From Heliobacterium chlorum (GTDB lineage: Bacteria > Bacillota > Desulfitobacteriia > Heliobacteriales > Heliobacteriaceae), in the NCBI RefSeq assembly GCF_014502795.1, contig NZ_JACVHF010000025.1, positions 9,593 through 41,592 of the forward strand: a stretch of DNA of 32,000 nt, written 5' to 3'. Numbering within the stretch: position 1 is the first letter of the stretch; every line of letters starts with the position of its first letter. A model generated the notes under the pieces. The model had not been told where the DNA came from, ran no database searches, and was given only the letters and a program-made list of their open reading frames with translations. Position numbers and translations under genes: made by a program. Positions 10,724 to 29,148 of this stretch are shown in pieces.

Positions 10724-10765
10724 GATGAAAGAAAGCTCCCTAGTACGTTGATGTACCGGGGAGCT
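10724..10765 (-). terminator. Probable terminator of cshA
   Basis: On the minus strand: agctccc ... gggagct stem with an inner gtac/gtac pairing, followed by ttctttc. Confidence 0.4.
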
Positions 10766-10772
10766 GTTTACT

Positions 10773-12429: not shown

Positions 12430-14916
12430 GTGATACAATTTCCGGTCGATTCTATATTGCAGTCACTATCTGAAACATTACAAAAGTATCGCAATGCGGT
12501 ACTGGTGGCGCCTCCTGGAGCGGGAAAAACGACCCGAGTGCCACTGGCGCTACTGGAAGAAGATTGGCTTGTGGGGCGCAAGATCTTGATGCTAGAACCT
12601 CGCCGTCTGGCGGCCCGGTCGGCAGCCCGTTTTATGGCCGCTTCACTCGGAGAGTCGGTGGGGGAACGAGTGGGCTACCGGGTCCGTTTGGACAGTCGTG
12701 TCGGGCCGAAAACAGGGATCGAAGTCATCACCGAAGGCGTACTGACCCGCATTCTACAGGCGGACCCTGCCCTGGAGGATGTAGGGCTGGTGATTTTCGA
12801 CGAGTTTCATGAGCGAAGCCTCCAGGCTGATTTAGGGTTGGCGCTCTGCCTGCAGTCGCAGTCGCTTCTTCGGGAAGACCTCCGACTGTTAGTCATGTCG
12901 GCTACGCTCGATACCGAACCGGTGGCCGCGCTTCTGGGAAATGTGCCGGTGGTTCAAAGCGAGGGCCGTGCCTATCCTGTGGAGACTCAATACTTGGAGC
13001 GATCCCGTGACGGGAGCATCGAGCCGCTGGTGGTCCGAGCGATTCAGGATTCCCTGCACCAAGATCCCGGAGATATTTTAGTCTTTTTACCGGGTGCAGG
13101 GGAAATCGGACGGATAGAAGATCGGCTGGTCGAGATGAGATTAGATAAACAAGTGATGATCTGCCCGCTCTACGGCAACCTTAGCCAGGACGCTCAGGAC
13201 AAAGCCATTGCTCCAAGCCCGCCGGGAGTGCGCAAAGTGGTGCTGGCAACGTCGATCGCGGAGACAAGCCTGACGGTAGAGGGAGTTCGAGTGGTCATCG
13301 ACAGCGGGCTCATGCGGGTGCCGCGCTTTTCTCCTCGAACCGGAATGACTCGATTGGAGACGGTGCTGGTTTCCCGAGCTTCCGCTGACCAACGGCGGGG
13401 ACGGGCAGGCCGGTTGGCACCGGGAAAATGCTATCGTCTGTGGACTCGCCAAGAGGATCTTCGCTTGCTTCCGCAGGGCACGCCGGAGATATCGCAGGCC
13501 GACCTGGCCCCTCTCGCCCTCGAACTGGCTGCTTGGGGAATTTCGGACCCGGCAGAGCTTTCTTGGCTCGATCCGCCGCCGAAGGGCGCCTTTGACCAAG
13601 CCTGTGCGCTGCTCCGGCAACTGGGTGCCCTCGGCGGTGACGGCAAGATCACCTCCCATGGACGGCAGATGGCCGAATCGGGATTGCATCCCCGGCTGGC
13701 TCATATGATCGTGCAGGCGATTCCGCTCGGACAGGGAGGACTTGCCTGTGAACTGGCGGCTATCCTCAGTGAGCGGGACATTTTCCGGATTAGTGGAACG
13801 ACCGATGGAGATATACGTCTTCGAGTGGAAGCGCTGCGTGCTGACAAGGAAGACCTCTACGGAGTGGGCAAGGCTGCCCTTCGGAGAGCCCGCACCGAGG
13901 CAAAGCACTGGAAGAGAGTATTCCAGATCCCTCTGAACAACAAAGCCAGCGAGATTAACGCAAGTGGACTTCTGCTGGCCTTTGCCTACCCTGATCGGAT
14001 TGCCCAAGGTCGGGGCGGCGGTAGGTACCTGCTTCGAAACGGGCGCGGTGCAGCCTTGGCGAAGGATCAACCCCTGGCAGAGGAACCGTACCTCGTAGCA
14101 GTGGAACTGGATGATCAGGGCGCAGAGGGCCGCATATTCCTGGCAGCGCCGGTCGAACTGTCTGATCTGATGGAATACTTCAGAGAACAAGTCGAAATAG
14201 AATCGGTGGTCGCCTGGGACAGGTCGGCACAAGCAGTGCGGGCACGAAAACGCGAACGGCTCGGTTCGCTCATCCTTAAAGAAGTAAATATGACTGATGC
14301 CGATCCGGAAGCAACGGTGGCAGCGCTTCTCGATGGGATCCTCGAAGAAGGCCACGAAATTTTACCGTGGACGAAAGCGGCTCGCCAGTTTCAGTATCGC
14401 TTGCAATTTATGCACCGGCAAAATCCAACCTGGCCTGATATGTCCGAGAGTGTGCTGAAAGATCGTCTTTCCGAGTGGCTTGGACCGCACTTATACGGGC
14501 TGCGAAGCCGGGAAGACTTGCAATCGTTGAACATTGTGCCCATTTTTGAATCAATGCTTTCGTGGGAGCAGCGCCGGGAACTGGATGAGAGCGCTCCCAC
14601 TCATATTCTTGTGCCCAGCGGCCAGCGAATTCCCATTGACTATAGCGTACCTGAGTCGCCGGTGTTGGCCGTCCGGCTGCAAGAGATGTTCGGGCTGGCT
14701 GAAACGCCGACGATCTGCCGGGGACGGGTTCCCCTGACCCTGCACTTGCTCTCGCCGGCCCATCGTCCGGTTCAAGTGACCCGCGATCTGGCTAACTTCT
14801 GGCGAGAGACCTATTTTGAGGTGCGCAAAGACTTAAAGGGACGTTACCCGAAACATTATTGGCCCGATGATCCCTGGAATGCGATCCCGACGAACCGGGT
14901 TCGACCGCGGGTTTAG
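12430..14916 (+). CDS. hrpB: ATP-dependent RNA helicase HrpB (DEAH-box)
   Basis: APPGAGKTTRVP (motif I), FDEFHERS (DEAH), SATL and QRRGRAGR. The 828-aa length with a long C-terminal HrpB-type domain fits. GTG start. Confidence 0.9.
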   Translation: MIQFPVDSILQSLSETLQKYRNAVLVAPPGAGKTTRVPLALLEEDWLVGRKILMLEPRRLAARSAARFMAASLGESVGERVGYRVRLDSRVGPKTGIEVITEGVLTRILQADPALEDVGLVIFDEFHERSLQADLGLALCLQSQSLLREDLRLLVMSATLDTEPVAALLGNVPVVQSEGRAYPVETQYLERSRDGSIEPLVVRAIQDSLHQDPGDILVFLPGAGEIGRIEDRLVEMRLDKQVMICPLYGNLSQDAQDKAIAPSPPGVRKVVLATSIAETSLTVEGVRVVIDSGLMRVPRFSPRTGMTRLETVLVSRASADQRRGRAGRLAPGKCYRLWTRQEDLRLLPQGTPEISQADLAPLALELAAWGISDPAELSWLDPPPKGAFDQACALLRQLGALGGDGKITSHGRQMAESGLHPRLAHMIVQAIPLGQGGLACELAAILSERDIFRISGTTDGDIRLRVEALRADKEDLYGVGKAALRRARTEAKHWKRVFQIPLNNKASEINASGLLLAFAYPDRIAQGRGGGRYLLRNGRGAALAKDQPLAEEPYLVAVELDDQGAEGRIFLAAPVELSDLMEYFREQVEIESVVAWDRSAQAVRARKRERLGSLILKEVNMTDADPEATVAALLDGILEEGHEILPWTKAARQFQYRLQFMHRQNPTWPDMSESVLKDRLSEWLGPHLYGLRSREDLQSLNIVPIFESMLSWEQRRELDESAPTHILVPSGQRIPIDYSVPESPVLAVRLQEMFGLAETPTICRGRVPLTLHLLSPAHRPVQVTRDLANFWRETYFEVRKDLKGRYPKHYWPDDPWNAIPTNRVRPRV

Positions 14917-14948
14917 CAAAATAAGATATTTATACTTACAATCCATTC

Positions 14949-14976
14949 ACGCCTATGCACTCGCATAGGCGTTTTA
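14949..14976 (+). terminator. Hairpin after hrpB (weak U-tract)
   Basis: acgcctatgc / gcataggcgt 10-bp stem, loop actc, then ttttaaaa. Confidence 0.4.
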
Positions 14977-15301
14977 AAACCCATTACACAGGCAAAAGAA
15001 AAAACAATTATAAACAGTTAAATACTATTCGGGCAAGTCTGTTGTAGAATGGGCACTATAAATTTAAATATTTAGGTAAAAGAATAAGTAAAATAGAGTT
15101 TCAAAAAAGGTTGCGTAGAATAATATAAAATAGTAACATGAATTAAATACCTAAAAAAGGTACTTTAAACAAATAAAATGGAATTCCTTTAAAAGTCTAA
15201 AGAAGTAAATAAATTGTAGAATTATTTTATCAACCAGACTTGAACTAAAAATTAACTGTTTAGGTATTACAACACTCCTTTTCTAGACTTGTTGGAGGAA
15301 T

Positions 15302-16237
15302 ATGCAAATGAATATAAGTGTTTCTAAGCTTAAGGAATTGGTAAATGAGTATCTTGATTCTATTAAACTTGAACGAAACTTGGCACTTAAAACCATAAAG
15401 GCATACCAATCAGATTTAAACATTTTGTCAAATTGGATAGAAGATTCACAAGGATGTTTTCAAGAAGAAAGTTGTTTGTGTTATATTCATGAGGTGTTTG
15501 GTTCTAAATTATCTGATGCTACTAAAAAACGAAAAATTATATGTATAAAATCCTTTCTAAATTACCTGATAGACTTAGGTTTTTTGAATCAGACACAGTG
15601 GATGAAAAACAAAAAAAGATTTGTAACTACAAAACGAGTACCGAAAACGTTAAGCGGACATGAAGTAGTACACTTATTAAACGCACCAAAAAATGAGCTC
15701 TTAATTTATAAAAGCAATATTAGAAGAACGATCTGTTATAGAAACGTTGCTATTTTAGAACTACTTTATTCGACAGGAATTCGTATTGGAGAATTAGTAG
15801 AGATTACGTTAAGCGCGCTGGACCTACAGGAAAGGACGTTGCTTATAATGGGAAAAGGTAGGAAAGAGCGGTTATTATATATTTCTAACGAAGAAGTCTT
15901 ACATGCTTTAGAAGATTGGTTAAATGTAAGAAGCCTACTAATTCCCAAAAGTAATAGTTTATACATAAATAGGTTTGGGGACAAAATGTCTATTTTTGCA
16001 GTGGAAGAGGTATTTAAAAAGTACAAAAAAATGACTAAAATCAATCCCAAGGCCACTCCGCACTATCTCAGACATACGTTTGCAACTCAATTGTTAAATA
16101 ACGGAGCCGACCTTCGTGCCGTTCAAGAAATTTTGGGACACTCAAGTATAAGTACTACTCAAATTTACACTGAAGTCTCATTGGCTAGGAAAAAAGATGT
16201 ACTCATAAAATATAATCCACGAAATCGCCTTTTATAA
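15302..16237 (+). CDS. Tyrosine recombinase / integrase (XerC/XerD-like)
   Basis: N-terminal SAM-like domain (LERNLALKTIKAYQSDLNIL). Catalytic signature YSTGIRIGEL (Arg), HYLRHTFAT (HxxR) and LGHSSISTTQIYTEV (His...Tyr). GGAGG lies upstream. The second ATG at 15308 has better SD spacing. Confidence 0.9.
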   Translation: MQMNISVSKLKELVNEYLDSIKLERNLALKTIKAYQSDLNILSNWIEDSQGCFQEESCLCYIHEVFGSKLSDATKKRKIICIKSFLNYLIDLGFLNQTQWMKNKKRFVTTKRVPKTLSGHEVVHLLNAPKNELLIYKSNIRRTICYRNVAILELLYSTGIRIGELVEITLSALDLQERTLLIMGKGRKERLLYISNEEVLHALEDWLNVRSLLIPKSNSLYINRFGDKMSIFAVEEVFKKYKKMTKINPKATPHYLRHTFATQLLNNGADLRAVQEILGHSSISTTQIYTEVSLARKKDVLIKYNPRNRLL

Positions 16238-16245
16238 TTAATAAT

Positions 16246-16270
16246 GTTGTTGACCGGTGGAGTCAACAAC
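16246..16270. promoter_or_regulatory. Inverted repeat (9-bp arms, 7-bp spacer) 9 nt after the integrase stop
   Basis: gttgttgac cggtgga gtcaacaac. There is no adjacent U-tract. It could be a weak terminator or a recombinase core-type site. Confidence 0.35.
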
Positions 16271-16299
16271 TATAATGCAAACGTTTTTTAAAAAATAAC

Positions 16300-16329
16300 C
16301 CTAAAATAACTAAAAATTATTTGGGGGTA
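16300..16329 (+). repeat. Shared leader element, copy 1 (upstream of the TIR gene)
   Basis: cctaaaataactaaaaattatttgggggta matches the reverse complement of 18921-18950 at 28 of 30 positions. The G-run sits 7 nt before the ATG. Confidence 0.85.
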
Positions 16330-16334
16330 AAGGA

Positions 16335-17845
16335 ATGGAAAGCTATGACGTATTTGTTTCATATGCTTCAGAAGATAAACACGATATCGTAGTACCTTTA
16401 GTACTTGAATTGGAAAGAACAACATTAAGGTCTGGTATGACGACTTTAATATTGAATTAGGCGATAGCTTAAATCAAACAATTAACAAAGGCTTATCAAA
16501 TTCAAGGTATGGAATAGTAATCCTCAGTCATAACTTTTTTAAAAAAGAATGGCCTATAAGAGAACTAAATGCATTATTAAGTAAAGAGAAGCTTGGGGAA
16601 AAAGTCATCTTGCCCGTTCTTCATAATATATCTATTGAAGAAATTAAGAATTATTCGTTATTACTAGCTGACAAGGCTGGAGTTCAAAGCAAAAAAGGAT
16701 TGGACGTGGTAGTCAAACAAATAATGGGTGTAGTATCCAAAAAACCAAATTTTCCAGGGGCAGTGCAGGAGTATATTCCTGTACCCAACATGAATTTTAA
16801 TGAGATTATAAAGTACTGCAAAACATCATCGTACGATGGAATAAAGAAAGCTGGAGAACAGTTAGAAAAATTTATTAAGATATCGGAAATTGATTTGGAA
16901 TTGGCTTTTCTTGGAGCCCAGCATGTAGTTAGTCTTATATTAATAGATGTTTACTTTTACCTGTATCAGTCTAGAGAGAGAATAAATAGTATTAAAGATG
17001 TAGAAAATGCAAACTTGTTATGTCAGGTTCTGGGGAAAAATACCTTAGGACAGATTAAAATAATCTACAATTTAGGTGATATAGCCCTCCGTAATAATGG
17101 TTTTTATACAAAAGAAACGATTAATCAAACAGACCTAAATGTATGCAAACAATCTCTAAAAGGAATACTTAATTGGTATTTTAACTCATATTACTCAAAA
17201 AAAACCAATAAGGATAGATTGTGTCTGGTTAAACCCGGAGAATTTTATAAAGAAGATATCCAAGAAATATACACCATAGAATCAAAGTTTTTCGATCCAA
17301 GCTTTATATCTCCTGTAGAAGTTGCGACCCAATGGTATGAACACAACAATAAAACACTAATTGGGGTGAGAGATACTTTAACTGGAAAATTAGTTGGGTT
17401 TTTGTGCACGCTACCTATTACCAATGAGTTGTTTGAAAAAATATCATCCGGTGAATACATTGATACACATATATCAACTGAAGATATCAGGCTATACAAC
17501 TTACCCGATTTTTATAAGCTTTACTTATGTTCGTTATGTGTAGATCCCGAGTATACACATACAAGTGCATTAAGACTTATTTACAGGTCTTTTATTGAAC
17601 AGTTATTCGACTTAGCAGTTTATGATGAAATATATATTACCGATATAGTCGCTGATGCCATCAGCTCCAAGGGGGAAGAGTTATGTAAGTTTATACGTAT
17701 GAAATTTTATAAAAACACATTACATGGTACTAAAATATACAAAGATTCTCTTTTGCCGCCCTCTGTCACATTGAAAGGAAGAGAGGGTTTAAAGCTTATG
17801 AACTATTATAAGATGATTTACGAGCAGTATATAGATTTACTTTAG
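16335..17845 (+). pseudogene. TIR-domain protein (TIR + helical middle + GNAT-like C-terminus) interrupted by a 1-nt frameshift near 16416-16420
   Basis: The frame from ATG 16335 gives MESYDVFVSYASEDKHDIVVPLVLELER, then stops at 16458-16460. The next frame continues NNIKVWYDDFNIELGDSLNQTINKGLSNSRYGIVILSHNFFKKEWPIRELNALL (TIR core with the WxxxEL motif) and runs into track ORF 16610..17845. The C-terminal region (LVGFLCTLPI ... LYLCSLCVDPEY) looks GNAT-like but lacks a clear Q/RxxGxG/A motif. Confidence 0.75.
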
Positions 17846-18915
17846 GGTATACACTCCGTAAGCTCAAAAATTGGATCATTTAATGCGCTTAATTGCGATG
17901 ATACTAGCCGAATGATATCATCTTTATCTTTTTCAAATAAACTAATCATTGCTCTGTTAAGCTCGCAATATTCATTAATATGATTGTTTGAAAATTTTAA
18001 ATGCATTCTGCCACAACGACCATAACACATTTCAAAGCAACTCTTTTGAACACAGATTGACTCTTTACATGTAAAGCTTCCGAAATTTACCAATGTGCTA
18101 ACACTGCCTATGTAAAACTCACTGTTGTTCATTTCTTCTGAGCAACTATAACAATTTCCATTTGTCTGAACATAAACGCTACCGTAATTAAAACCGCATA
18201 ATATACCACTAGATTTTTTAATTTTCATTAGTAGTCTTACCATGCTCATAAAAGGTATTATGTTTAGCATACTACCTTTTCTTAAACTATTTATCCAAAC
18301 CTGATATAGTAATTTAGTCTCATAGATATACGTTTTTGAAAAATCCTCAAATCTATTAAACGTGTAACAGTTCTCTATTTGCCAATGAACGTAATCAAAG
18401 AAATTTAATACTTGCATTACGTTGGTATAAACACTTACTTTTTCGGTTATTGTGAGTCTACCAAGAATTGTTATGTTGCTCAATTGTCTGATGTAATTTA
18501 TGTTATTTATAATCTTAGCAAAATAACTATTGTATAGACCGTACGAAGGTATTTTCTCATAGTTAATTGATATTATTATGCGATTAAGCGCTGAAAGAAT
18601 TTCTAAGGGTATTTTGTCTAAAAGTATACCATTAGTATGTAATATATATTTTACAGGCATTGTTTCGACGACAAAACCAATTTCTTGTATAACTTTAAAG
18701 ATATAGTCGTAATCCAATGTTGGTTCGCCGCCAAAAAAGAGAATATTTATTTCATTATCGTTATAAGTTTTTTGTGTTTTTATTATAAATTCTTTTAACT
18801 GCCCTATTGAGTATGATGGCTTTTCTGGATAACAGTTATTCTTATTGATATTTACACCGGAGCAATAATTACAATCCAAATTACAGTTGTTTGTTACGAA
18901 AATATAATATTCCAT
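17842..18915 (-). CDS. Radical SAM enzyme with a C-terminal SPASM/twitch-type Cys-rich domain
   Basis: CNLDCNYC (CX3CX2C), FFGGEPTL (GGE motif) and HTNG. The C-terminal cysteines are CGFNYGSVYVQTNGNCYSC ... CKESICVQKSCFEMCYGRCG. The likely start is ATG 18915 (MEYYIFVTNNCN), 7 nt after a G6 run. The track start 18930 is a TTG inside that run. Confidence 0.85.
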   Translation of the reverse strand: MEYYIFVTNNCNLDCNYCSGVNINKNNCYPEKPSYSIGQLKEFIIKTQKTYNDNEINILFFGGEPTLDYDYIFKVIQEIGFVVETMPVKYILHTNGILLDKIPLEILSALNRIIISINYEKIPSYGLYNSYFAKIINNINYIRQLSNITILGRLTITEKVSVYTNVMQVLNFFDYVHWQIENCYTFNRFEDFSKTYIYETKLLYQVWINSLRKGSMLNIIPFMSMVRLLMKIKKSSGILCGFNYGSVYVQTNGNCYSCSEEMNNSEFYIGSVSTLVNFGSFTCKESICVQKSCFEMCYGRCGRMHLKFSNNHINEYCELNRAMISLFEKDKDDIIRLVSSQLSALNDPIFELTECIP

Positions 18916-18920
18916 AAGAT

Positions 18921-18950
18921 AACCCCCCAATAATTTTTAGTTATTTTAGG
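18921..18950 (-). repeat. Shared leader element, copy 2 (upstream of the radical SAM gene)
   Basis: The reverse complement reads cctaaaataactaaaaattattggggggtt. The first 22 nt are identical to 16300-16321. Confidence 0.85.
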
Positions 18951-19050
18951 ATATAAACTCTAACAAAAATATTTTTGAGTGATTGTTTTAATTGGGTTTC
19001 TTAATTATTCTCAGTTTTAAATCTCATTTATTTTCGGGGTTTGGTTGTTG

Positions 19051-20922
19051 TTAGAGCCCTAAGCGATCTAATATCTTCAATGCTAAGGTTGTGTAATCTA
19101 GGCTGAGAAGAAGTTCTCTATTTTCTAACGTGTTCATGTTGTTTATGATCTTGACCCAACCTTGAGAATCTAATTCTGAAGCAATTTCAGATACACGACC
19201 TCCACACGAACCAATTAAATAGACGGGTAAATTTTTTCTCAATGCCATTTCAATCTCTTCATCGACGCCAGATAATGTTCCGTTCGGTTTACTTCTTCCA
19301 CCTAGTGCAACCAGACCTAATGCATTTTCATCATTAATCATAGCCTGACGCATGACCGTCAGGCTTTTCTCCCGATTACCATCGATGATTTTGGTTGGAA
19401 TAACAGTCGAATATTGCTTAAACGTTTCAATCTCTTTATCTGATACGAAATATTTAGAAATATAAAGCCGAATAGCTTCTTTATAATCATAAGGGCAGCG
19501 CCTTTTGGCTAAGTCAAAAATCAATGGTTGAAAGGTAGGGTGACCACCAAAGATTACCCTACCGCCACAGTCAAGAATTGCCTGAGTTAGGGCATGAATT
19601 GCCGTCGTTAAATTCTGTTGATATATAGGTCCACACATGGGAAATGAACCGGAAATAATAACTCCGTTCTTTTTGTTCCCATTTCTTGGTGGGACGCTTA
19701 TGTACTTGTGTATATTCGTTAAATACTCGTCTGCTGAGTCAACATAAAAAAAACCCGGAGAAAAGTTTTTAATACATGTCCCCTGAGAAGGTGCAAGTAA
19801 AAGGGCCGCATCTACAAGGTGACCATGTTTAGGATGTGCTATGTAGCCCATCGCTTGTATATTTTTGTCGAACAACTGAATATCGGAATCTTCTGGATGC
19901 CTACCATAAAACTGAACAAGATGAGTCATAGGACGTTGAGGGTATCGAAAACCTCTTCGAGGGAGTTGAACCTCATAAATAAGATTCTTTTGATCTAACT
20001 CGATAATATTGGCACCTTCAAAGCTTATAACAGACTTTAACCGATTAATTCGATCGAAGACGTTATGACCGGATTCCATACAAACCTTAAAGGCAGTCTC
20101 GATTATACTTTCTATAACTTCAGGATTTAGAGTTTTGTCGGAACTAGACAAATCACCTAGATGTAAATGCGGTTCGCGAGCTGGACGTACCGGTAGTTCT
20201 GATCTTCCGTCTACAAGACCAACTTTTATCCAAACAATGGGTATATTTAGTGCGAGGGCTAACTGTAGCTCCCGAGCAACCCATTTAGATTCTCCCGCTT
20301 TAGGAGTATCTAGAAAAAGAACAACGTCACTCTTACAAAGGTTTCGTTCTATAACTTCCTGTGCGTCTTCCCCTACCAGTACCTCAGTAAGATCTCGAAA
20401 TGTATGTTCAGCCCTTATGCATAATTCGCGGTAAAGGGTAGCTGCAAAAATCTCTCCATCAGCTCGGCGATGACTCAAAAAGAAACACATACGTGTCCTT
20501 GATAGATTAGGTTTTAGCTTAACTACAACGACTCGTGCCAATACGACAGCAATAGTTTCGAGACTAGAGGAAGTTAAAGAACGTAAGTTGATTTGATCAA
20601 CAACATCGAAGCTTTGCCGAGTGCTTATTAATGTGTGAGGGGTTCGCGTGTCCCTATCGAGGGCAACTGGAATTACTTCTGTGTTTGTATTTATACCCCT
20701 CGTTAAAACTTCAGTGATTAAAGAATCATAGTTGTTATCTGGTCGGTTAAAGATAATAAGTACATCATTATCAGTGAACTGGACACTCTTCAAGACATTC
20801 TCAGAACAAAGCGAAACGACCTCTACATATTGTTCTAATTCAGATCTAAGCGCGTTGAAAAACCTAATTGCCGTGACGATAGAACCCAGTGTCTTCTTGG
20901 GATCTATGAGATAAGCCTTCAT
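19051..20922 (-). CDS. Multidomain TIR + SLOG(LOG/DprA-like) protein, 623 aa
   Basis: Central TIR-like block: MCFFLSHRRADGEIFAATLYRELC ... SDVVLFLDTPKAGESKWVARELQLAL ... IPIVWIKV. C-terminal Rossmann-like block with Gly motifs: GVIISGSFP, GGRVIFGGHPTFQPLI, LVALGGRSKPNGTLSGVDEEIEMA, YLIGSCGG. These resemble SLOG/LOG signatures. GGGAGGA SD lies before the ATG. Confidence 0.7.
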   Translation of the reverse strand: MKAYLIDPKKTLGSIVTAIRFFNALRSELEQYVEVVSLCSENVLKSVQFTDNDVLIIFNRPDNNYDSLITEVLTRGINTNTEVIPVALDRDTRTPHTLISTRQSFDVVDQINLRSLTSSSLETIAVVLARVVVVKLKPNLSRTRMCFFLSHRRADGEIFAATLYRELCIRAEHTFRDLTEVLVGEDAQEVIERNLCKSDVVLFLDTPKAGESKWVARELQLALALNIPIVWIKVGLVDGRSELPVRPAREPHLHLGDLSSSDKTLNPEVIESIIETAFKVCMESGHNVFDRINRLKSVISFEGANIIELDQKNLIYEVQLPRRGFRYPQRPMTHLVQFYGRHPEDSDIQLFDKNIQAMGYIAHPKHGHLVDAALLLAPSQGTCIKNFSPGFFYVDSADEYLTNIHKYISVPPRNGNKKNGVIISGSFPMCGPIYQQNLTTAIHALTQAILDCGGRVIFGGHPTFQPLIFDLAKRRCPYDYKEAIRLYISKYFVSDKEIETFKQYSTVIPTKIIDGNREKSLTVMRQAMINDENALGLVALGGRSKPNGTLSGVDEEIEMALRKNLPVYLIGSCGGRVSEIASELDSQGWVKIINNMNTLENRELLLSLDYTTLALKILDRLGL

Positions 20923-20972
20923 AGCTTTCCTCCCACTACGATACGACCTAAATTTATTTTAGTTTAATTTGA

Positions 20973-20995
20973 CCAAAATTCGTGTCGAATTTTGG
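20973..20995. promoter_or_regulatory. Perfect palindrome (10-bp arms, 3-bp centre) in the divergent intergenic region upstream of the TIR-SLOG gene
   Basis: ccaaaattcg tgt cgaattttgg, 51-73 nt upstream of start codon 20922. It has operator-like geometry. Confidence 0.4.
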
Positions 20996-21272
20996 CATGA
21001 ATATTTTATTAAAATAATATTTTGCCGTAAAGTCTTTGCTAACATATAATAGTAAATTATATAGTTACATACATAGCCATAAAAGCCGAGTGAATGCAAG
21101 CGGTTTTAATTACTGCAAATTTTTGTTCCTCTATAGGTCCGTTATAGTAGAAGAAATTTTAGCTAATCTCTTGACAAAAAGGATTCAGCACATAGTCATA
21201 GAAAAACTAAATGATCGGATTATTGTTTGCCGATTATAACGAAATTTGTTGTTGGACAATGGAGAATTACTG

Positions 21273-22331
21273 ATGAACGAAGATATTCTCAATCATATTT
21301 CTCAAATGCTAAAAAACCACAAATTAAAGACGATGGAACTCTCTCTTTTGCAGGATACCATGCCTGGAAACACCGATTATCGAAGCTTTGCGTCAATCAT
21401 CAATAAACTCATTGATGATGGGGTACTGACACCGATCAAAGCAAAAGGGACGAATCGGAAAACTTCGCCCCTGCCCAACAAATTCACTATCGGGCACGGA
21501 AGAGTTCACGAAGAACACTATCAGAGGCTCAAACGTGCCCGGTTGCGGTTTCATTCGTCGATTGACTTATCAAGTTATTACCGACTGAGCCCCGCCGTTT
21601 GGGAAAAGGATCAGGATTCACTGGCCAAGCTAGACGCCTACCTGCAGAAGCAGGGCTTACCGCAAAAAGCCGCTTCCCTACAGGAACGTTCTTTTGAAAT
21701 TTTTGATCATGAGAAATGGTTGGAAAGCAAAGAAGGGACCGATTTCTTAGCCCGAGTCGGCCTGTCTCTTGAAAGGCTCTCGGTCGTTCCCGTCCCCGAT
21801 CCCTGCATGTTTGCGATGCAATCCGAATTGTATAAAGATCCCCAGCGCCTGTGTCATGAACATTTGATTGTAGAAAATAAGACGCCCTACCATGTGCTCA
21901 TGCCATTGATGCATCAGCAACGCGTCTTCACGACGCTGATTTACGGCCAGGGCAAGGCGATCATTTCAACCCTACAAGGGTTTACGACTCAGGCTGGTTT
22001 TTGTTTAGGTGAACAGAACCACACCTTTCACTACTACGGCGATCTAGATCATGAAGGCATCAGCATTTGGTACAGCTTGCAGAAGCGTTACCCGATTCGC
22101 TTGGCCCTGCCTTTTTACCGCGCCTTACTGCAAAAAGAGTATGCCATCGGAAAAGAGAACCAGAGGCCGAATCCGGAAGCTTTCGCCCTGTTTTTAACGA
22201 ACTTTTCATCACAAGAACAAGCAGCGATTCAATCGATGATGGACCAAGGTGGGTACTTACCCCAAGAGGCCTTGTCGGCGGAAGAGACAGCGAATATATG
22301 GAGGAACCAGCATGGATCAGCGTCTAGCTGA
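21273..22331 (+). CDS. JetD/MksG-like Toprim-domain protein (putative nuclease subunit) with an N-terminal winged-helix-like region
   Basis: HLIVENKTPYH (Toprim Glu) and HYYGDLDHEGISIW (DxD) in the C-terminal half. GGAG lies 8 nt before ATG 21273. The track start 21246 is a TTG. Confidence 0.7.
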   Translation: MNEDILNHISQMLKNHKLKTMELSLLQDTMPGNTDYRSFASIINKLIDDGVLTPIKAKGTNRKTSPLPNKFTIGHGRVHEEHYQRLKRARLRFHSSIDLSSYYRLSPAVWEKDQDSLAKLDAYLQKQGLPQKAASLQERSFEIFDHEKWLESKEGTDFLARVGLSLERLSVVPVPDPCMFAMQSELYKDPQRLCHEHLIVENKTPYHVLMPLMHQQRVFTTLIYGQGKAIISTLQGFTTQAGFCLGEQNHTFHYYGDLDHEGISIWYSLQKRYPIRLALPFYRALLQKEYAIGKENQRPNPEAFALFLTNFSSQEQAAIQSMMDQGGYLPQEALSAEETANIWRNQHGSASS

Positions 22332-23826
22332 CTTGACGAGAGGCTTTCGCGATCGCATCAACCGCCTGGCCATCTTTGATCCCCTCTACGAACTAGGGCG
22401 AAAGGTCAGCCGGGACCAGCAGAATAACCCCATCGACTGGTTCAGCCTCGGCATGGTCAGCCTGCTCTTTTTCTTCGAAAGCATGCTGACGCGGCGACGG
22501 CAGACCTCGGTGAAAGATTTGGCGGCGTACCTAATGGAGCTCAACCAGGAAGGCCCCATCAGCGCCGATGAAGCGGGATTTCAAAAAATCGCCCGGGAGA
22601 TTATCGACGCCTTCCGAGACGCCTCGGGTAAGCGAAAAGAAAAAGTATTCTTTAACTGGGAAACGCGCCAGGAGGACCGGATTTATTACTCTCTCATTGA
22701 AGTGAGCGACTCCGACTTGAGCCAAAACATCCAGAATTACCGCTTAACCGAGCGAGGGCTGGAACTGATCTTTGCAACGAAAGAGTATTTCAGTGAGTTT
22801 CATCTTTCCATCAGTCAATTGGTGCTCCGGAAACAGCTCGAAAAGGGCGAGCTAAATGGGGCCTTGCGCGAAATCGATGAGATGCGGATCGCTGTGGAAC
22901 AACTGCAGCGGAAAATGATTCAACTCAATCTGGAAGTGCAGCGCAACATCATTTCCCACGAGACGCAAAAGAAATACACGGAGATCCTCGATGCCATCCA
23001 TGGACGCCTAACCCGCGAAGAGGAAGAATTCCGTGAACTCTACGGCTTTGTCTTGGAGAAAAAACGGAACTTGGAATATGAGATGACGGCGGAGCGCGAT
23101 ATCCGGGCCTACAACCTGCTCATCCAGATCGCGAAAGAACTCGATGAGGTCCACCGTATGCACCGCGCCCTTTTGCATGACAGCATCACCCTCAAACGCA
23201 AGGCCTTGCATGCGGCCAAGGAATCGCTCTACCATGCCGGGCTCATCGCCTTCAACTTCAACCAGGATGTTACCTCCCGCGCCGTGACCTCTCCTCTACC
23301 TGCCTCTGCCTTGGAAGGGCTGATCAAACCGCTGCTCGGCCCCTATGTGGAGCGAAATTGGTCTCCCTTAGACGTTTTTGCGCCCCAACGAACGGGAGGC
23401 GATGACGAGGGCGAATGGGAGATCCCCCATTTTGCAGAAGCCGATGACCGCACGGAAGGCCCGTCCTTTCTCCAACAGCAGCGGCAAAACTTTCATCGGC
23501 TCAGTCAAGAACTGCAAGCCTATCTGGGAGAAAAAACCGAAATCCGCCTGTCTGAGTTCCTGGGATACCTGCAGGCCGACCCAGAACGGGCTCCTTTCGT
23601 CGAAAACCGGTCGCTCTATGATTACTGGTTGCTCCTTCACCAGCATACACCGTTACAGATCCATCAAGGACGCAATGAAGACGGAAAGAGCTATCTCCTC
23701 GACGACATCATCGCCGCTTTTTCCCACGTGGAAGAGATCGAAGTGCAGGAAGAACCGGAACTGCTACAGCCCCATCCCCGCTATGAGATCCAAGAAATGA
23801 TCTTACGATTGAAGGTGAACGCGTGA
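22312..23826 (+). CDS. Predicted kleisin-like subunit (JetA/MksF-like), 504 aa
   Basis: Assigned by position, size and helical/coiled composition, not by a motif I can recognise. GGAGG at 22300-22304 lies 7 nt before ATG 22312. It overlaps the upstream stop by 20 nt. Confidence 0.5.
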   Translation: MDQRLADLTRGFRDRINRLAIFDPLYELGRKVSRDQQNNPIDWFSLGMVSLLFFFESMLTRRRQTSVKDLAAYLMELNQEGPISADEAGFQKIAREIIDAFRDASGKRKEKVFFNWETRQEDRIYYSLIEVSDSDLSQNIQNYRLTERGLELIFATKEYFSEFHLSISQLVLRKQLEKGELNGALREIDEMRIAVEQLQRKMIQLNLEVQRNIISHETQKKYTEILDAIHGRLTREEEEFRELYGFVLEKKRNLEYEMTAERDIRAYNLLIQIAKELDEVHRMHRALLHDSITLKRKALHAAKESLYHAGLIAFNFNQDVTSRAVTSPLPASALEGLIKPLLGPYVERNWSPLDVFAPQRTGGDDEGEWEIPHFAEADDRTEGPSFLQQQRQNFHRLSQELQAYLGEKTEIRLSEFLGYLQADPERAPFVENRSLYDYWLLLHQHTPLQIHQGRNEDGKSYLLDDIIAAFSHVEEIEVQEEPELLQPHPRYEIQEMILRLKVNA

Positions 23827-24587
23827 CGACCGTCGTTGAACATGCTCATATGGAACTGGCCTTTCATCTATATGCACAATTGCTGCAAAAGGGGCAGTTG
23901 TCCCAAGACCAGCCGGGGTTTCGGGAATATATCGCCCAGAGTGAAGTACGCAGTTTGGTCGACACCTTTGCCACCGAGATGGACAGCGTCGTCGTCAAGA
24001 CCTCAGACCACCTCTACTTGGTGCCCAAGTCAGGCCAGTCCCCCTTCGGCATGAAAAATGCCTACATCAAAAGAGAGTATCTCGGCTACCAGGCGACCAA
24101 CATCGATCTTTACATGATGTACTTTGCCATCATCGTCCTCTTCGGCGAGTTTTATGACAGCTATGAAACGCCGGAGGCGACGCGGGACTTTTTACCGATC
24201 GGTGAGTGGATGAGCAAGATTCGGGAGCGACTCGATACGATCAAGGAACAAGGGGAAGAACAGCTAGATCAGATCGAAGGCGAGACCGAGTGGAACTGGG
24301 TCGGCGTGATTCACTTCTGGGATTCCCTCGACGACCTTAAAGAGACGGCCAAGCGGCAAGATACGAAGCAGCAGAGCCGGCTCGGCTTTCTGAAGCGAGT
24401 CATCCGATTCCTCGACGCCCAGGACCTGGTGCAAGATCAGGGCAACGACGAACTGAAACTGACGGAAAAAGCCAAGATCATCGTCCAACGGTACTACATG
24501 GACCGGGAATACAACCGGGACCTCTTGGCCTATATGTATCAGTTCGATCAAGTGAAAGGGAATGATCCCGATGCCGGCCATCGCTAA
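23823..24587 (+). CDS. Predicted KITE-like subunit (JetB/MksE-like), 254 aa
   Basis: Assigned by position and size. The GTG start overlaps the upstream TGA (GTGA), which suggests translational coupling. Confidence 0.45.
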   Translation: MTTVVEHAHMELAFHLYAQLLQKGQLSQDQPGFREYIAQSEVRSLVDTFATEMDSVVVKTSDHLYLVPKSGQSPFGMKNAYIKREYLGYQATNIDLYMMYFAIIVLFGEFYDSYETPEATRDFLPIGEWMSKIRERLDTIKEQGEEQLDQIEGETEWNWVGVIHFWDSLDDLKETAKRQDTKQQSRLGFLKRVIRFLDAQDLVQDQGNDELKLTEKAKIIVQRYYMDREYNRDLLAYMYQFDQVKGNDPDAGHR

Positions 24588-27500
24588 AATCCGCCTGACG
24601 AACGTGCAGTATGAACAGGGCAATAAACGGTACACGGACCAGACCTTCCGGTTTGACGGCCATAACGGCGCCATTCTGCTCGAAAACGGAGGAGGTAAAT
24701 CGGTCCTTGTGCAAACGGCCGCCCAGGCGGTCATCCCTAATGGCATCCTGGCCGATCGCAAACTCCGTGACACCCTCGACGTGTCGGCGGCGCCGGCCCA
24801 TATCGCTGTAGAGTGGATCCTCAACGACAAACCGCGACAGTACGCCCTGACCTGCGTCACTTTTTATATGGGTAAAGAGGGACTCGAATATCTGCTCTAT
24901 GCCTATGACTACCCAGCCGGAGACAAGGGGCAGATCGAAAACCTCCCTTTTGTGCAGAAAGACCGATCGGGCAAACGTCCGGCCAGTCGCGAGGAGATCA
25001 AAGAATACTACCAAAGCATGTCCTACAGCCACATGAACGCCAAAACCTTCAGCACGAAAAAAGAGTACCAGGCATATCTCGAAGAAACATTTCAAATCGT
25101 CCCCTCTGAATGGGAAGCGATTCTTAAAATCAACGGTGCAGAAGGCGGCGTAGAAAAGTTCTTTGAACAGTGTGCCACGACGGGCCAACTGGTCGACCGG
25201 CTGCTCATCCCGGTGGTAGAACAGGGTATGGCCGGTAACGGCACGAAAGATTTTGCCCGGCTCTTCGATAACCACCGGCAGCATTTTCGCGAATATCTGG
25301 AACTGACCGAACAGATTAAGGAATATCAAGACGTGATCTCCCGCGTCAGCCAAGTGGTGGAACGGTACAGCCGCTTTGACCGTGAGGAGCAGGCCTATCA
25401 ATCGCTGCAAGGCCGCGCCAAGGGGCTGCTTCTGCATGTCGATGAGGAACTGGCCCAGTCGGTAGAGGCCCAGGAAGAATTAGACCGAAAAGAACGGGCC
25501 TTGCAAGAGCAGGAGAAAAGGCTGCATCAAAAAGCCCTTTCCCTAGATATCGCTCGCCTACAGCGAGAACGATCCGAGGCGGAGGAAAGGCTCTACCGTT
25601 GTGAGCAGCGGCGTGATGAAAAACAGGCAGAGCACCGCGAGAGCGCAAGCCTGCTGGAATCGTTGAAACTGGCCGCGCTATTGGAACAACTTCAAGATAA
25701 GCAAACAGACCTAAGCGCATACCAGCGCCAACTGGAGGAACTGGATCATTCGCCCGATATCGCCCATCTGCAAATCGAACGGGCACAGGTTCTCTCCCAA
25801 CTGCGCTATCACTTCGACCGGCTGGAAGAGGACTTCCGTCAACTGCAAGATCGGGCCCAGGCGATTTTATCGGAACTGGCCCAGGAAGAGCAGACGAAGA
25901 AAAAGGCACTCCTCGAAGCAGAGGAAAAGAGGAGAAGCCTACTCGTTCTCCGCACAGAGACTCGGACGCATATCGAGAATAAAGAGCAACAGATGCAGCG
26001 GATCGTCCAGGCCATCTTGCACGATCCGCTGCGGGAGCAAGTGGAGGAACAGCTTCCCCACTGGCAGAAACGGTCTATCGCCCTCGGTGAAGATGTCAAT
26101 GGGCTCATCGCCGATATGGGACGCTGGCAGGCCGAGAGTGAAGAACTGCATCGCCAGGAGAAGCAAATCCAGATAGAATTAACTGCCCTCCGCCAAGATC
26201 TCACCAAGTGGGAGACGGAACTGTCGACCGTCGATAAACAAGCGCAGCAACTGCTCGAACGGTTGCACCTTCTTTCCCCGGAAGACCGGGAGCTCAACTC
26301 TATCTATAAACGGCAGCCGACGATCCGGGCGCGCCTCCATGAAGCCAGGACATTATTGGAAGAAGAGAAGAACCAACAGATGGAGCAGGAACGGATCCTG
26401 CTGCGCTTTTATGACCTTTATAAAGACAGCCAACTGTTCACGGCCGATCCGGGGCTCGAACGGCAGTGCCGACGGTGGCAATCAGACATCCCCTCCTTAC
26501 AACTGGGCACGGCCTTCCTGCAAATCCTTCTGGAAGAGAAGCCCCAGTTGACCATGAGCAGACTCTATGAGCACTATCCCTTCTGGCCCATCACCTTGAT
26601 CTGCGGGGCTGCTGATCTGGGCAAGGTCAAGAAGCTGGTCGAAGGTGCCGCCCAGCAGTGGACCCACCCCGTGTTCATCTTGACGGAGCAGGAAGCGCAG
26701 GCCCGTTGGACGACCCCCTTTGAATTGCCGGCTGTCCACGTATCACCGGGCCAATGGCCGCAGATCTCAGAATCGATCCCTTTTCAGGCCTGGCTGGAAG
26801 AGAGCCGTCAAAAAGCCGCCTTCGTCGTCGAGGAACGCAAAACGCTGGAAGAAAAGCTTCGCCAGTGGCATGCGCTGGCTGATGCCGTCGACCGCTTTTG
26901 GCAGGAATATGATTTTCAAGCGATCTATTTACCGTTAAAAGAAAAGATCAGCCAAGGCAAAGGGCGTTTGGAAGAACTGCACAATGCCGTCGCTCATATC
27001 GATGGTCAAAAGCAGAACTTGCAGCGCCAGTTAAAGGAAGGCGCCAGCAAGAAGATTCGCTGGGAAGCCGAACAGGCTGACGTGACGGAGCGCTACCGGA
27101 AGGGGCTTGAATGGAAGCGACTTCAAGAAGAGCGTAACCGTCTGACGGAAAGGCTGGAAGGACTGAGCGCCGACGAGAAAGGGGTCGCCCAAGAGGTAGA
27201 CGAACTCAAGACACAGATGGACGATCTGGAATCGAAGCAGCGCCAGCAGGAAAAGCGCACCTGGGAACTGGACGAGAAGCTAAAAGATATTCGCAACGAC
27301 GTCGATAACAAGGAAAGCCAAAACAGCGCTCCCGTAAAAGCCGAGCTCTCCCTCAACCTCTTAAAAAGCCGCAAGGCCGAGTTGACTGACAAACTACAGG
27401 GCATCCAGCAAAACCGCAAATCCTTGCAGGCGATGATCGGTAGCGCAGAGAAAGATGTGCACCGGTTGGAGCAGCAGATTCGCAGACAGCGGGAACAATT

Positions 27501-29013
27501 CAGCGACATCCTTCAAGGGGAAATCACCTTCCCACCGAATGGGGAAGAAGAGATTGAGCGTCTGACCGAGACGACCCGGTCCTTAAAACGAACCCTCGAT
27601 CGGTTGAACCAAGAGCTGGCCGACGCGCAGACGAAGGCCACGGTGGCCCGGACGCGGGTGGCGGCCAAAGAAGAGCAATTCTTCAAGACCTTACCCGATG
27701 CGGCCATAGTAGACTTTGGTAGGCAGCCCCTCGAAGAGGTCGAGACTCTCCTTCATCAAGAATCACAGCGCCTGAGCCAAGAGGGGGTGCAGGTAAAAGG
27801 AGAACGACGGCGATTAGAACAACTCTATGCGGAATTGAACAGTGTCAAAAAAGCCTTGGAAGTGGCCCGGGGCGTCCATAAATTCGGGCGAGAAAGCATC
27901 ACCGCCATATCGCTGAAGGAAGAGGACTTGCAGGAGTATCCGTATAAGCGGCTGGCCTTCACGAACGAACTGTCCCTGCAACTGGAGAGAGCGCAAGAAA
28001 AGGTGGACCTGGAGCGCAAAATGGTGGAGCAGGAACGAAAGCGTTTTGAAGCCTACTGCCTCCAAGAGATCAAGGATGAAAAAACGAAGCAACAAGCCGT
28101 CAACGGCATTCGGTTAAAAGACAGCTTCAGTGAAATCCACGATTGGGGATTGCGACTGCAAGAGCGGATCGAAACGGCCATCCGGATTGCCGAAGAGAGC
28201 TTGCGCAGCCTCGATGAGCAGGTGCAGATTTTTATCAACCATCTCCATTCCCACCTGGTGCGGATCTGTGAAGAGTTGAAAGCGATTCCCAAGATGACCG
28301 CCGTCAAAGTGGAGGAGAAACGAAAAGAGATCTTCGACTTTACCGTTCCCCACTGGCCGGAACTAGAAGGGAAGACGAAGCTCCGCCAACATCTCGAATG
28401 GATGATGAAGGCACTGGAAAATGAGAAGTACCGCAACGAGCAAGGCCTGGAAGATACGGCGAAAGTGCAGGCCCAGATCGAAAGCTGGCTCCACCCGAAG
28501 CAACTGCTGCAAGTGGTCTCCTCGAGCCAGGAGATCAAAGTACGCTGTCGGAAGGTCACCAATGATAACCGTGTCAGCAGCGCCTTGACAGACTGGCCGA
28601 CGAGTGAAAGGTGGTCAGGCGGAGAGAAATGGAGCAAAAACATGACCCTCTTCCTGGGCATTCTCAACTACCTCGCTGAAAAACGCCAGCATATTCGCAA
28701 AGGCCAGGGAAACCACCGCGTCGTCATCCTGGACAACCCCTTTGGCAAAGCCTCCAGTAGCCACGTCTTAGGTCCCGTCTTCTTCATCGCCCAACAGTTG
28801 GGTTTCCAAATGCTCGCCCTCACAGCCCATGCGGAAGGGAAATTCCTTCGCGATTATTTCCCCATCATCTATAGCTGCCGGCTCCGCCCGACGAAAGATC
28901 CCTCCATCGCCATTGTCGAAGCGCAAAAAGAGATCCGCTATGCTTATTTTCAGGATCATGCGCCAACGAGCCTGGAGCGCTTAGAAGAGGTAGAACAGTT
29001 GACGCTGCTGTAG
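24562..29013 (+). CDS. SMC/MukB-like ABC ATPase (JetC/MksB-like), 1483 aa
   Basis: N-terminal head with LENGGGKS (Walker A). Two very long E/Q/R/K/L-rich coiled-coil arms flank a central globular hinge-like segment (about aa 640-760). C-terminal head with WSGGEKW (signature-like) and HRVVILDNPFG (Walker B position). The start overlaps the upstream gene by 17-26 nt (ATG 24562 or 24571). Confidence 0.8.
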   Translation: MIPMPAIAKIRLTNVQYEQGNKRYTDQTFRFDGHNGAILLENGGGKSVLVQTAAQAVIPNGILADRKLRDTLDVSAAPAHIAVEWILNDKPRQYALTCVTFYMGKEGLEYLLYAYDYPAGDKGQIENLPFVQKDRSGKRPASREEIKEYYQSMSYSHMNAKTFSTKKEYQAYLEETFQIVPSEWEAILKINGAEGGVEKFFEQCATTGQLVDRLLIPVVEQGMAGNGTKDFARLFDNHRQHFREYLELTEQIKEYQDVISRVSQVVERYSRFDREEQAYQSLQGRAKGLLLHVDEELAQSVEAQEELDRKERALQEQEKRLHQKALSLDIARLQRERSEAEERLYRCEQRRDEKQAEHRESASLLESLKLAALLEQLQDKQTDLSAYQRQLEELDHSPDIAHLQIERAQVLSQLRYHFDRLEEDFRQLQDRAQAILSELAQEEQTKKKALLEAEEKRRSLLVLRTETRTHIENKEQQMQRIVQAILHDPLREQVEEQLPHWQKRSIALGEDVNGLIADMGRWQAESEELHRQEKQIQIELTALRQDLTKWETELSTVDKQAQQLLERLHLLSPEDRELNSIYKRQPTIRARLHEARTLLEEEKNQQMEQERILLRFYDLYKDSQLFTADPGLERQCRRWQSDIPSLQLGTAFLQILLEEKPQLTMSRLYEHYPFWPITLICGAADLGKVKKLVEGAAQQWTHPVFILTEQEAQARWTTPFELPAVHVSPGQWPQISESIPFQAWLEESRQKAAFVVEERKTLEEKLRQWHALADAVDRFWQEYDFQAIYLPLKEKISQGKGRLEELHNAVAHIDGQKQNLQRQLKEGASKKIRWEAEQADVTERYRKGLEWKRLQEERNRLTERLEGLSADEKGVAQEVDELKTQMDDLESKQRQQEKRTWELDEKLKDIRNDVDNKESQNSAPVKAELSLNLLKSRKAELTDKLQGIQQNRKSLQAMIGSAEKDVHRLEQQIRRQREQFSDILQGEITFPPNGEEEIERLTETTRSLKRTLDRLNQELADAQTKATVARTRVAAKEEQFFKTLPDAAIVDFGRQPLEEVETLLHQESQRLSQEGVQVKGERRRLEQLYAELNSVKKALEVARGVHKFGRESITAISLKEEDLQEYPYKRLAFTNELSLQLERAQEKVDLERKMVEQERKRFEAYCLQEIKDEKTKQQAVNGIRLKDSFSEIHDWGLRLQERIETAIRIAEESLRSLDEQVQIFINHLHSHLVRICEELKAIPKMTAVKVEEKRKEIFDFTVPHWPELEGKTKLRQHLEWMMKALENEKYRNEQGLEDTAKVQAQIESWLHPKQLLQVVSSSQEIKVRCRKVTNDNRVSSALTDWPTSERWSGGEKWSKNMTLFLGILNYLAEKRQHIRKGQGNHRVVILDNPFGKASSSHVLGPVFFIAQQLGFQMLALTAHAEGKFLRDYFPIIYSCRLRPTKDPSIAIVEAQKEIRYAYFQDHAPTSLERLEEVEQLTLL

Positions 29014-29115: not shown

Positions 29116-29148
29116 AAGGCCCCCTTCCGTCACATGGAAGGGGGCCTT
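29116..29148 (-). terminator. Terminator hairpin between the Jet-like operon and rsgA
   Basis: aaggcccccttcc / ggaagggggcctt 13-bp stem. On the minus strand it is followed by tttttct, so it best fits rsgA termination. The plus-strand tail is weaker. Confidence 0.6.

Follow-up and report, generated by a model that had tools for sequence, protein, structure and literature searches.

The representative of type III among the Wadjet defence systems, an operon of Bacillus thuringiensis, reportedly goes back to Doron et al. 2018 and was tested again by Liu et al. (bioRxiv 10.1101/2022.10.04.510915). Three Wadjet types are distinguished by sequence similarity and operon organisation (PMC10586767). 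In type I (Escherichia coli GF4-3 and Pseudomonas aeruginosa PA14; PDB 8as8 and 8dk1), the genes are written in the literature as jetABCD, and their products fill four roles: kleisin (JetA), KITE (JetB), structural maintenance of chromosomes (SMC) ATPase (JetC) and Toprim nuclease (JetD). Type II (Neobacillus vireti; PDB 9qe0 and 9qe1) is described as having a long SMC, a channel-less hinge and a MukBEF-like geometry (10.1101/2025.03.10.642339, PMC12647877), together with a tandem KITE protein of about 388 amino acids (aa) and four winged-helix domains (WHDs) (10.1101/2025.03.10.642339). The SMC proteins of type III have no hinge channel, like MukB and type II and unlike type I, and their coiled coils tend to be longer (PMC12647877).

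Here we analyse a stretch of 32,000 nucleotides (nt), "the window", from Heliobacterium chlorum (contig NZ_JACVHF010000025.1, positions 9,593 to 41,592). We are highly confident that positions 21273-29013 of the window hold a Wadjet type III operon, jetD-jetA-jetB-jetC, which is chromosomal and intact. It fills the same four roles as type I. The system is already known and catalogued, and this is a complete, ordinary copy of it. The listing of open reading frames (ORFs) gives four overlapping, co-directional ORFs:

21273-22331, + strand: jetD (type III), Toprim nuclease subunit, 352 aa, ATG start
22312-23826, + strand: jetA (type III), kleisin-like subunit, 504 aa
23823-24587, + strand: jetB (type III), KITE-like subunit with two winged-helix domains, 254 aa, GTG start
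24571-29013 (1480 aa) or 24562-29013 (1483 aa), + strand: jetC (type III), SMC-like ATPase

The overlaps are 20 nt between jetD and jetA, 4 nt (GTGA) between jetA and jetB, and 26 or 17 nt between jetB and jetC, depending on the start of jetC. A preliminary description of this DNA had claimed four overlapping genes with these overlap lengths and product types, and the ORF listing and the junction sequences bear it out. Each of the four starts is preceded by a Shine-Dalgarno-like sequence. The ribosome-binding site (RBS) of jetD is GGAG, 9 nt 5' of its ATG (a TTG at 21246 lies in frame upstream), and that of jetA is GGAGG. For jetC, the ATG at 24571 is more likely to be the start than the one at 24562, judging from homologues that begin MPxIxKIR, from a PADLOC alignment that starts at residue 4, and from the Shine-Dalgarno-like GAAAGGGA, whose spacing is correct only for 24571.

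All four proteins match the type III models of PADLOC-DB over essentially their full length: JetD matches JetD3 (PDLC00592; 1.8e-104, model positions 3-345 of 346), JetA matches JetA3 (PDLC00566; 3.9e-177, positions 4-497 of 503), JetB matches JetB3 (PDLC00575; 7.6e-95) and JetC matches JetC3 (PDLC00582; E=0, 1504.6 bits, positions 1-1471 of 1472). With E-values from 1e-95 to 0, these family matches are far beyond chance. None of the four proteins matched the PADLOC JetA1/2, JetB1/2 or JetC1/2 models; the type I and type II models match JetD only, and weakly, via the shared Toprim domain (JetD1 at 1e-7; JetD2; DUF2399). In Pfam, JetD matches JetD_C (PF09983; 34 bits against a gathering cut-off of 22) and JetB matches DUF6063 (3.4e-84). 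Pfam has no family for JetA or JetC, which gave coiled-coil noise only (ClpB and SMC_prok, about 1e-3 to 1e-4), and NCBIfam gave nothing meaningful for JetA3 or JetC3 beyond weak coiled-coil noise. Neither Pfam nor NCBIfam placed JetA, JetB or JetC in the families of type I (DUF3375, DUF4194) or type II (DUF2397, DUF2398, TIGR02677-02680).

Each protein also has the features that go with its type III family. JetD is about 350 aa long, with a C-terminal JetD_C/Toprim domain and an E...DxD signature. JetA is a kleisin-like protein of about 500 aa with a type III profile, although the evidence for its fold is moderate. JetB is a DUF6063 protein of about 250 aa with a predicted KITE fold, and JetC is an SMC-like ATPase of about 1470 aa with a type III profile. 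The four genes are contiguous on one strand in the order D-A-B-C. An SMC complex of the Wadjet/Mks kind with a JetD-type Toprim nuclease, in just this order, is what the preliminary description had read from the sequence, and the type III profiles agree.

We found no wording of the type III gene order in the literature search, so we established the order empirically from loci. Besides the window, we inspected loci of Heliobacterium mobile DSM 6151, Clostridium perfringens pJFP838A, a Pontibacillus megaplasmid, Bacillus mycoides p481, Brevibacillus agri and Clostridium drakei. The order D-A-B-C, with similar gene sizes, is found in 7 loci from six Bacillota genera, the window included: a JetD_C protein of 337-352 aa is followed by JetA (about 500-547 aa), a DUF6063 JetB (240-254 aa) and JetC (1450-1705 aa). 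JetA3 has 567 relatives at E<=1e-5, and the C-terminal head of JetC3 has 527 cluster representatives at E<=1e-3. When genome contigs were scanned with JetD, the near-identical locus of H. mobile was the only match, as single-protein queries reach no further than close relatives there. Judged from profiles and the loci inspected, the window copy (D-A-B-C, a DUF6063 JetB, a JetC of about 1480 aa, and a JetD of about 350 aa with JetD_C/Toprim) shows no architectural difference from type III. Some public names for these families are misleading: the name "replicative DNA helicase" is given to many JetA3 proteins and "non-ribosomal peptide synthetase module" to several JetB3 (DUF6063) proteins, and no domain match here supports either name.

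The preliminary description had suggested a divergent, unclassified Wadjet subtype or a related but distinct SMC-nuclease system. Some of our results are in keeping with this: JetA3 and JetC3 are without a model in Pfam and NCBIfam, JetA, JetB and JetC match none of the type I or type II models, and the gene order is unlike the jetABCD written in the literature for characterised systems. However, all four proteins match existing type III models at full length and with very high scores, the same architecture recurs in the 7 loci and six genera and among hundreds of database homologues, and NCBI already names the JetD homologues Wadjet JetD. A new subtype is therefore barely credible; the PADLOC matches and the synteny survey effectively refute it. 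What the preliminary description had set beforehand as counting against its own proposal, a clean profile classification as a known type with a common gene order, is what we found. Its three supposed differences from the canonical locus are all norms of type III, given their recurrence across loci and the literature. The nuclease gene comes first in every type III locus inspected, and a MukB-sized ATPase is usual, both from the JetC lengths above and from the long MukB-like coils reported for the type (PMC12647877). The middle two proteins do lack a recognisable JetA or JetB motif, as had been said, because they have no detectable sequence similarity to types I and II or to MukF and MukE; as a departure from known types, this point did not stand.

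In the Toprim subunit, the motif LIVENK holds E201 (nt 21873-21875) and GDLDHEG holds D257 and D259 (nt 22041-22049). E201, G256, D257 and D259 are invariant across 7 aligned JetD3 proteins that are 23-93% identical, which upholds the JetD-type E...DxD signature noted earlier. Two observations on JetD stand apart from its classification. In H. mobile DSM 6151, jetD carries an extra in-frame segment of 126 nt (42 aa, GGFIQKQPQVDCYTLL...) between the Toprim Glu and the DxD (extracted H. mobile locus 10738-10865); the segment is absent from the window and from the other aligned JetD3 proteins. Also, E298 is the number that Liu et al. give to the Toprim Glu in JetD of B. thuringiensis (bioRxiv 10.1101/2022.10.04.510915), which disagrees with a Glu at about 201-207 in each JetD3 of about 350 aa that we aligned, and with PADLOC JetD3 models of 345-350 positions. 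The mismatch would be explained if that protein is extended at its N-terminus or if another start or numbering was used.

For the middle two proteins, we built AlphaFold2 models from alignments of 36 JetB3 and 40 JetA3 homologues and compared them with the PDB using Foldseek. The JetB3 model (predicted local distance difference test, pLDDT, of 82.6) has two winged-helix-like modules, and every one of its 20 best PDB matches is a JetB or MukE protein (8dk1_F at 2.7e-4, 3euh_E, 8as8_C, 9qe0_D). The type I JetB is thus among its matches, and the type II JetB (9qe0_D) ranks 17; the two-WHD, 254-aa JetB in the window differs in this respect from the tandem four-WHD KITE of type II. For JetA3 (pLDDT 77.9), the model runs from an N-terminal WHD-like domain through a long bundle of helices and a disordered linker (343-383) to a WHD-like domain at the C-terminus, and its top six PDB matches are all MukF chains (7nz2_C1 at 6.8e-4). 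From these models, the assignment of JetB3 as a KITE protein is well supported and that of JetA3 as a kleisin is moderately supported. The kleisin-like and KITE-like folds expected of the middle proteins in the preliminary description are thus the folds predicted. In contrast, hhalign found no signal between the JetB3 profile and MukE of E. coli, or between the JetA3 profile and MukF (probability <1%), so only the folds reveal the relationship. A phmmer search of the four proteins against PDB sequences returned chance matches (MazE9, P22 tail needle) or none.

JetC has the architecture of an SMC-like ATPase (residues are numbered from ATG 24562). The Walker A motif is NGGGKS (N42-S47), the signature SGGEK lies at 1352 (S1352-E1355), and the Walker B-like motif is VVILDN (V1386-N1392). 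A composition profile gives globular heads at about 1-240 and 1320-1483, charge-rich arms poor in proline and glycine (P/G) at about 241-640 and 761-1320, and a central hinge-like, P/G-rich segment at about 641-760 (nt 26482-26841). All the parts that had been listed for the ATPase (a Walker A head, long arms, a hinge-like centre, and a head with signature and Walker B) are present. Each arm also has one P/G-rich break, at residues of about 481-520 (nt 26002-26121) and 1041-1080 (nt 27682-27801), roughly equidistant from the heads; this pair of discontinuities could form a MukB-like elbow.

The Walker B motif is unusual. In place of the canonical hhhhD-E of SMC and ABC proteins, with its catalytic Glu, JetC has VVILD-N: Asn1392 (nt 28735-28737) stands at the catalytic position within the Walker B region at 28717-28755 (residues 1386-1398, VVILDNPFGKASS). 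D-N-P-F is invariant in all 109 full-length representatives of 50%-identity clusters, and the Asn is also present in all 6 of the diverse type III loci compared, which are as little as 25% identical. The conservation across these sequences indicates that the Asn is a family-level feature rather than a local mutation. We found no discussion of it in the literature that we searched. When the type III head profiles were aligned with E. coli MukB by hhalign, NGGGK[ST] fell on the Walker A GNGAGKS (E 2.5e-4), the signature WSGGE fell on LSTGE, and the Walker B vvI-D-N-PFGK fell on LLFL-D-E-AAR (E 6.8e-5 for both of the latter). The C-terminal head profile of JetC3 matched only prefoldin in the PDB, by a chance "ADNxxxKAS" match.

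In type I, by contrast, JetC has the Walker B Glu (E1022), and with the change E1022Q, the hydrolysis of ATP, the cleavage of DNA and the loss of plasmids are all abolished (bioRxiv 10.1101/2022.10.04.510915). Since a Glu-to-Gln change is fatal in type I and type III has Asn at this position, the ATPase cycle of type III may differ from that of type I. The locus could then be type III Wadjet by descent while its ATPase cycle departs from the type I extrusion-cleavage model: ATP might be hydrolysed very slowly, its binding might act as a switch, or a different residue might be catalytic. The invariance of D-N-P-F and the alignment of the Asn with the Walker B Glu of MukB speak for such a cycle, as does the dead type I mutant, and there is a precedent in Lamassu LmuB, an SMC-like defence ATPase with a natural Walker B change from Glu to Gln (PMC10586767). 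However, plasmid restriction by the B. thuringiensis operon in vivo resembles that by types I and II (bioRxiv 10.1101/2022.10.04.510915), and JetC3 conserves Walker A, the signature and the architecture of arms and hinge. The hhalign probability behind the alignment is only 63%, and another acidic residue may substitute: the acidic residue of the motif LTAHAEG is E or D in 99 of the 109 representatives, although its taking over from the Walker B Glu is speculative. We regard a variant cycle as unlikely, yet tenable enough to be kept in view. If it were true, one could not simply say that all Wadjet types share extrusion-cleavage.

The comparison with Lamassu goes no further than the ATPase. 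LmuB is likewise an SMC/Rad50-like ATPase that serves in defence and whose Walker B Glu is naturally replaced, but it is about 650 aa long, with short coiled coils and a zinc hook, and has no kleisin or KITE partners and other effectors. The weak PADLOC matches of LmuB to JetC (2.5e-4) cover only segments of the JetC3 coiled coil, and a Lamassu identity was rejected.

Several points weigh against our reading of the locus as an ordinary type III Wadjet operon. For all four proteins, no solved structure is detectable by sequence, and the TM-scores of the Foldseek matches are modest (0.36-0.47 for JetB3 and 0.20-0.35 for JetA3), as expected for flexible multi-domain proteins. JetC3 has Asn where a Walker B motif has its catalytic Glu, both here and family-wide. 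Foreign island DNA has taken the place of the native sequence upstream of jetD, to within 15 nt of the start codon. Finally, type III itself is described as largely uncharacterised (10.1101/2025.03.10.642339).

As to function, extrusion-cleavage has been shown for types I and II, and the authors of the type II work extended it to type III, for which they list the B. thuringiensis operon as the representative (10.1101/2025.03.10.642339). Three Bacillus operons, that of B. thuringiensis included, block plasmid transformation in B. subtilis (bioRxiv 10.1101/2022.10.04.510915); within type III, this representative is the only one for which plasmid restriction is reported. In such a mechanism, the kleisin JetA and a dimer of the KITE protein JetB would bridge JetC dimers into an SMC motor, which would load on DNA and extrude it as a JetA-bridged dimer of JetC2-JetB2 motors. 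On a small circular DNA, the motor would stall once extrusion is complete, and the stalled motor would recruit and activate a JetD Toprim dimer, leading to cleavage of the plasmid. The chromosome and very large replicons would be spared. The gene content of the locus, its family membership, its conserved catalytic-type residues, its predicted kleisin and KITE folds and the purifying selection on its genes are all seen in the present data. We infer complex formation, extrusion-cleavage and an anti-plasmid phenotype because of the biochemistry of types I and II and because the B. thuringiensis operon restricts plasmids in B. subtilis. The distribution of the family fits as well: all 14 plasmids in PLSDB with a JetD3 relative are of 172 kb to 1.08 Mb, and the Wadjet size limit is reported at about 100 kb, as would suit a size-limited anti-plasmid system carried safely on megaplasmids.

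A different function, that of a chromosome-organising condensin like MksBEF or MukBEF rather than a defence system, is brought to mind by the likeness to MukBEF of E. coli. The JetA3 and JetB3 models are closest to MukF and MukE, the heads of JetC3 align with the motifs of MukB, and JetC is MukB-sized (mukB, 1486 aa). But MukBEF has no nuclease gene, the gene order F-E-B and a Walker B with DE, and its sequence similarity to JetA3 and JetB3 is undetectable. An MksBEF or MukBEF locus consists of three genes with no Toprim partner; here jetD is intact in its catalytic residues, overlaps jetA by 20 nt and is translationally coupled to the other three genes. Furthermore, the family is sporadic, lies on megaplasmids and beside other defence genes, and falls in the PADLOC class Wadjet III. 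We consider a condensin function extremely improbable, and we retain the classification as Wadjet type III.

The comparison with types I and II can then be put briefly. JetD shares the JetD_C domain with type I and has a weak JetD1 match; JetA, JetB and JetC have no sequence match to the type I models, JetC is about 1480 aa long here, and the order is D-A-B-C rather than the jetABCD written for characterised type I systems. Among the type II profiles, only JetD2 matches, weakly.

The window copy is chromosomal, belongs to a genome of the phototrophic Heliobacteriaceae and has an integrase-bearing island abutting its 5' end. The window and contig NZ_WNKU01000023 of H. mobile DSM 6151 are 94-96% identical in DNA on either side of the operon, and the DNA identity of the locus itself is about 95%. 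By the Nei-Gojobori method, the ratios of non-synonymous to synonymous substitution (dN/dS) against H. mobile are 0.087 for jetA, 0.041 for jetB, 0.079 for jetC and 0.15-0.17 for jetD, compared with 0.083 for rsgA and 0.19 for hrpB in the flanks. From these ratios, the jet genes are under purifying selection, like the flanking housekeeping genes, and values of 0.04-0.17 imply that they are maintained by selection. The other features of the region are as follows:

14912-21257: low-GC island of 6.3 kb (29-42% GC versus 50-56%), ending 15 nt 5' of the jetD ATG
15302-16237, + strand: Xer-like tyrosine recombinase, in the island
16610-17845, + strand: ORF of 411 aa, in the island
17842-18930, - strand: radical SAM/SPASM gene, TIGR04084-like, in the island
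19051-20922, - strand: TIR-SLOG fusion of 623 aa, in the island
21022-21050, + strand: candidate sigma-70-like promoter, TTGCCG-17-TATAAT (10/12), the best match of a consensus scan, inside the island
29116-29148, no strand assigned: hairpin with a 15-bp stem and 9 G-C pairs, the best match of a terminator scan, between the convergent jetC and rsgA

The hairpin is strong and probably is a bidirectional terminator that closes the operon. In H. mobile, the counterpart of the island is an unrelated 296-bp spacer between hrpB and jetD. Neither att-like direct repeats nor a tRNA target turned up in a search of the island's flanks. In the TIR-SLOG fusion, the N-terminal TIR resembles Thoeris type III ThcB4 (2.9e-23) and the C-terminal SLOG resembles ThcA (6.6e-22), both with scores under the curated cut-offs; the fusion could be a Thoeris-like sensor/effector in a single chain, and it adjoins the radical SAM gene. 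The island also contains a 41-nt inverted repeat, 85% complementary, with one arm (16300-16340) just 5' of the region of the 411-aa ORF and the other (18910-18950) at the 5' end of the convergent radical SAM gene. From this placement, a leader or regulatory element may be common to both genes.

The island bears on the expression of the operon. Homology with H. mobile starts only at 21258, so any promoter of jetDABC must lie in island DNA. The locus might therefore be silenced or decaying in this strain, its promoter having been removed when the island inserted: the homology begins just 15 nt 5' of the jetD ATG, and the 296-bp spacer of H. mobile is absent. However, the four ORFs are intact and of family-typical lengths, their dN/dS values are low (0.04-0.17), promoter-like hexamers are present at the right end of the island, and the RBS is retained. 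These observations make silencing or decay quite improbable, and we continue to regard the operon as an intact Wadjet type III copy.

Standard tools such as PADLOC recognise this defence system directly, and the locus adds one more instance of it. Among the Wadjet types, type III is the least characterised, and the family-wide Walker B Asn gives a concrete handle on how its motor may differ from those of types I and II. For the organism, we predict that this Heliobacterium lineage would resist transformation with small circular plasmids. Deletion of jetDABC, or of jetD, should raise its genetic tractability, as in other Bacillota (PMC12287153; bioRxiv 10.64898/2026.03.21.713436).

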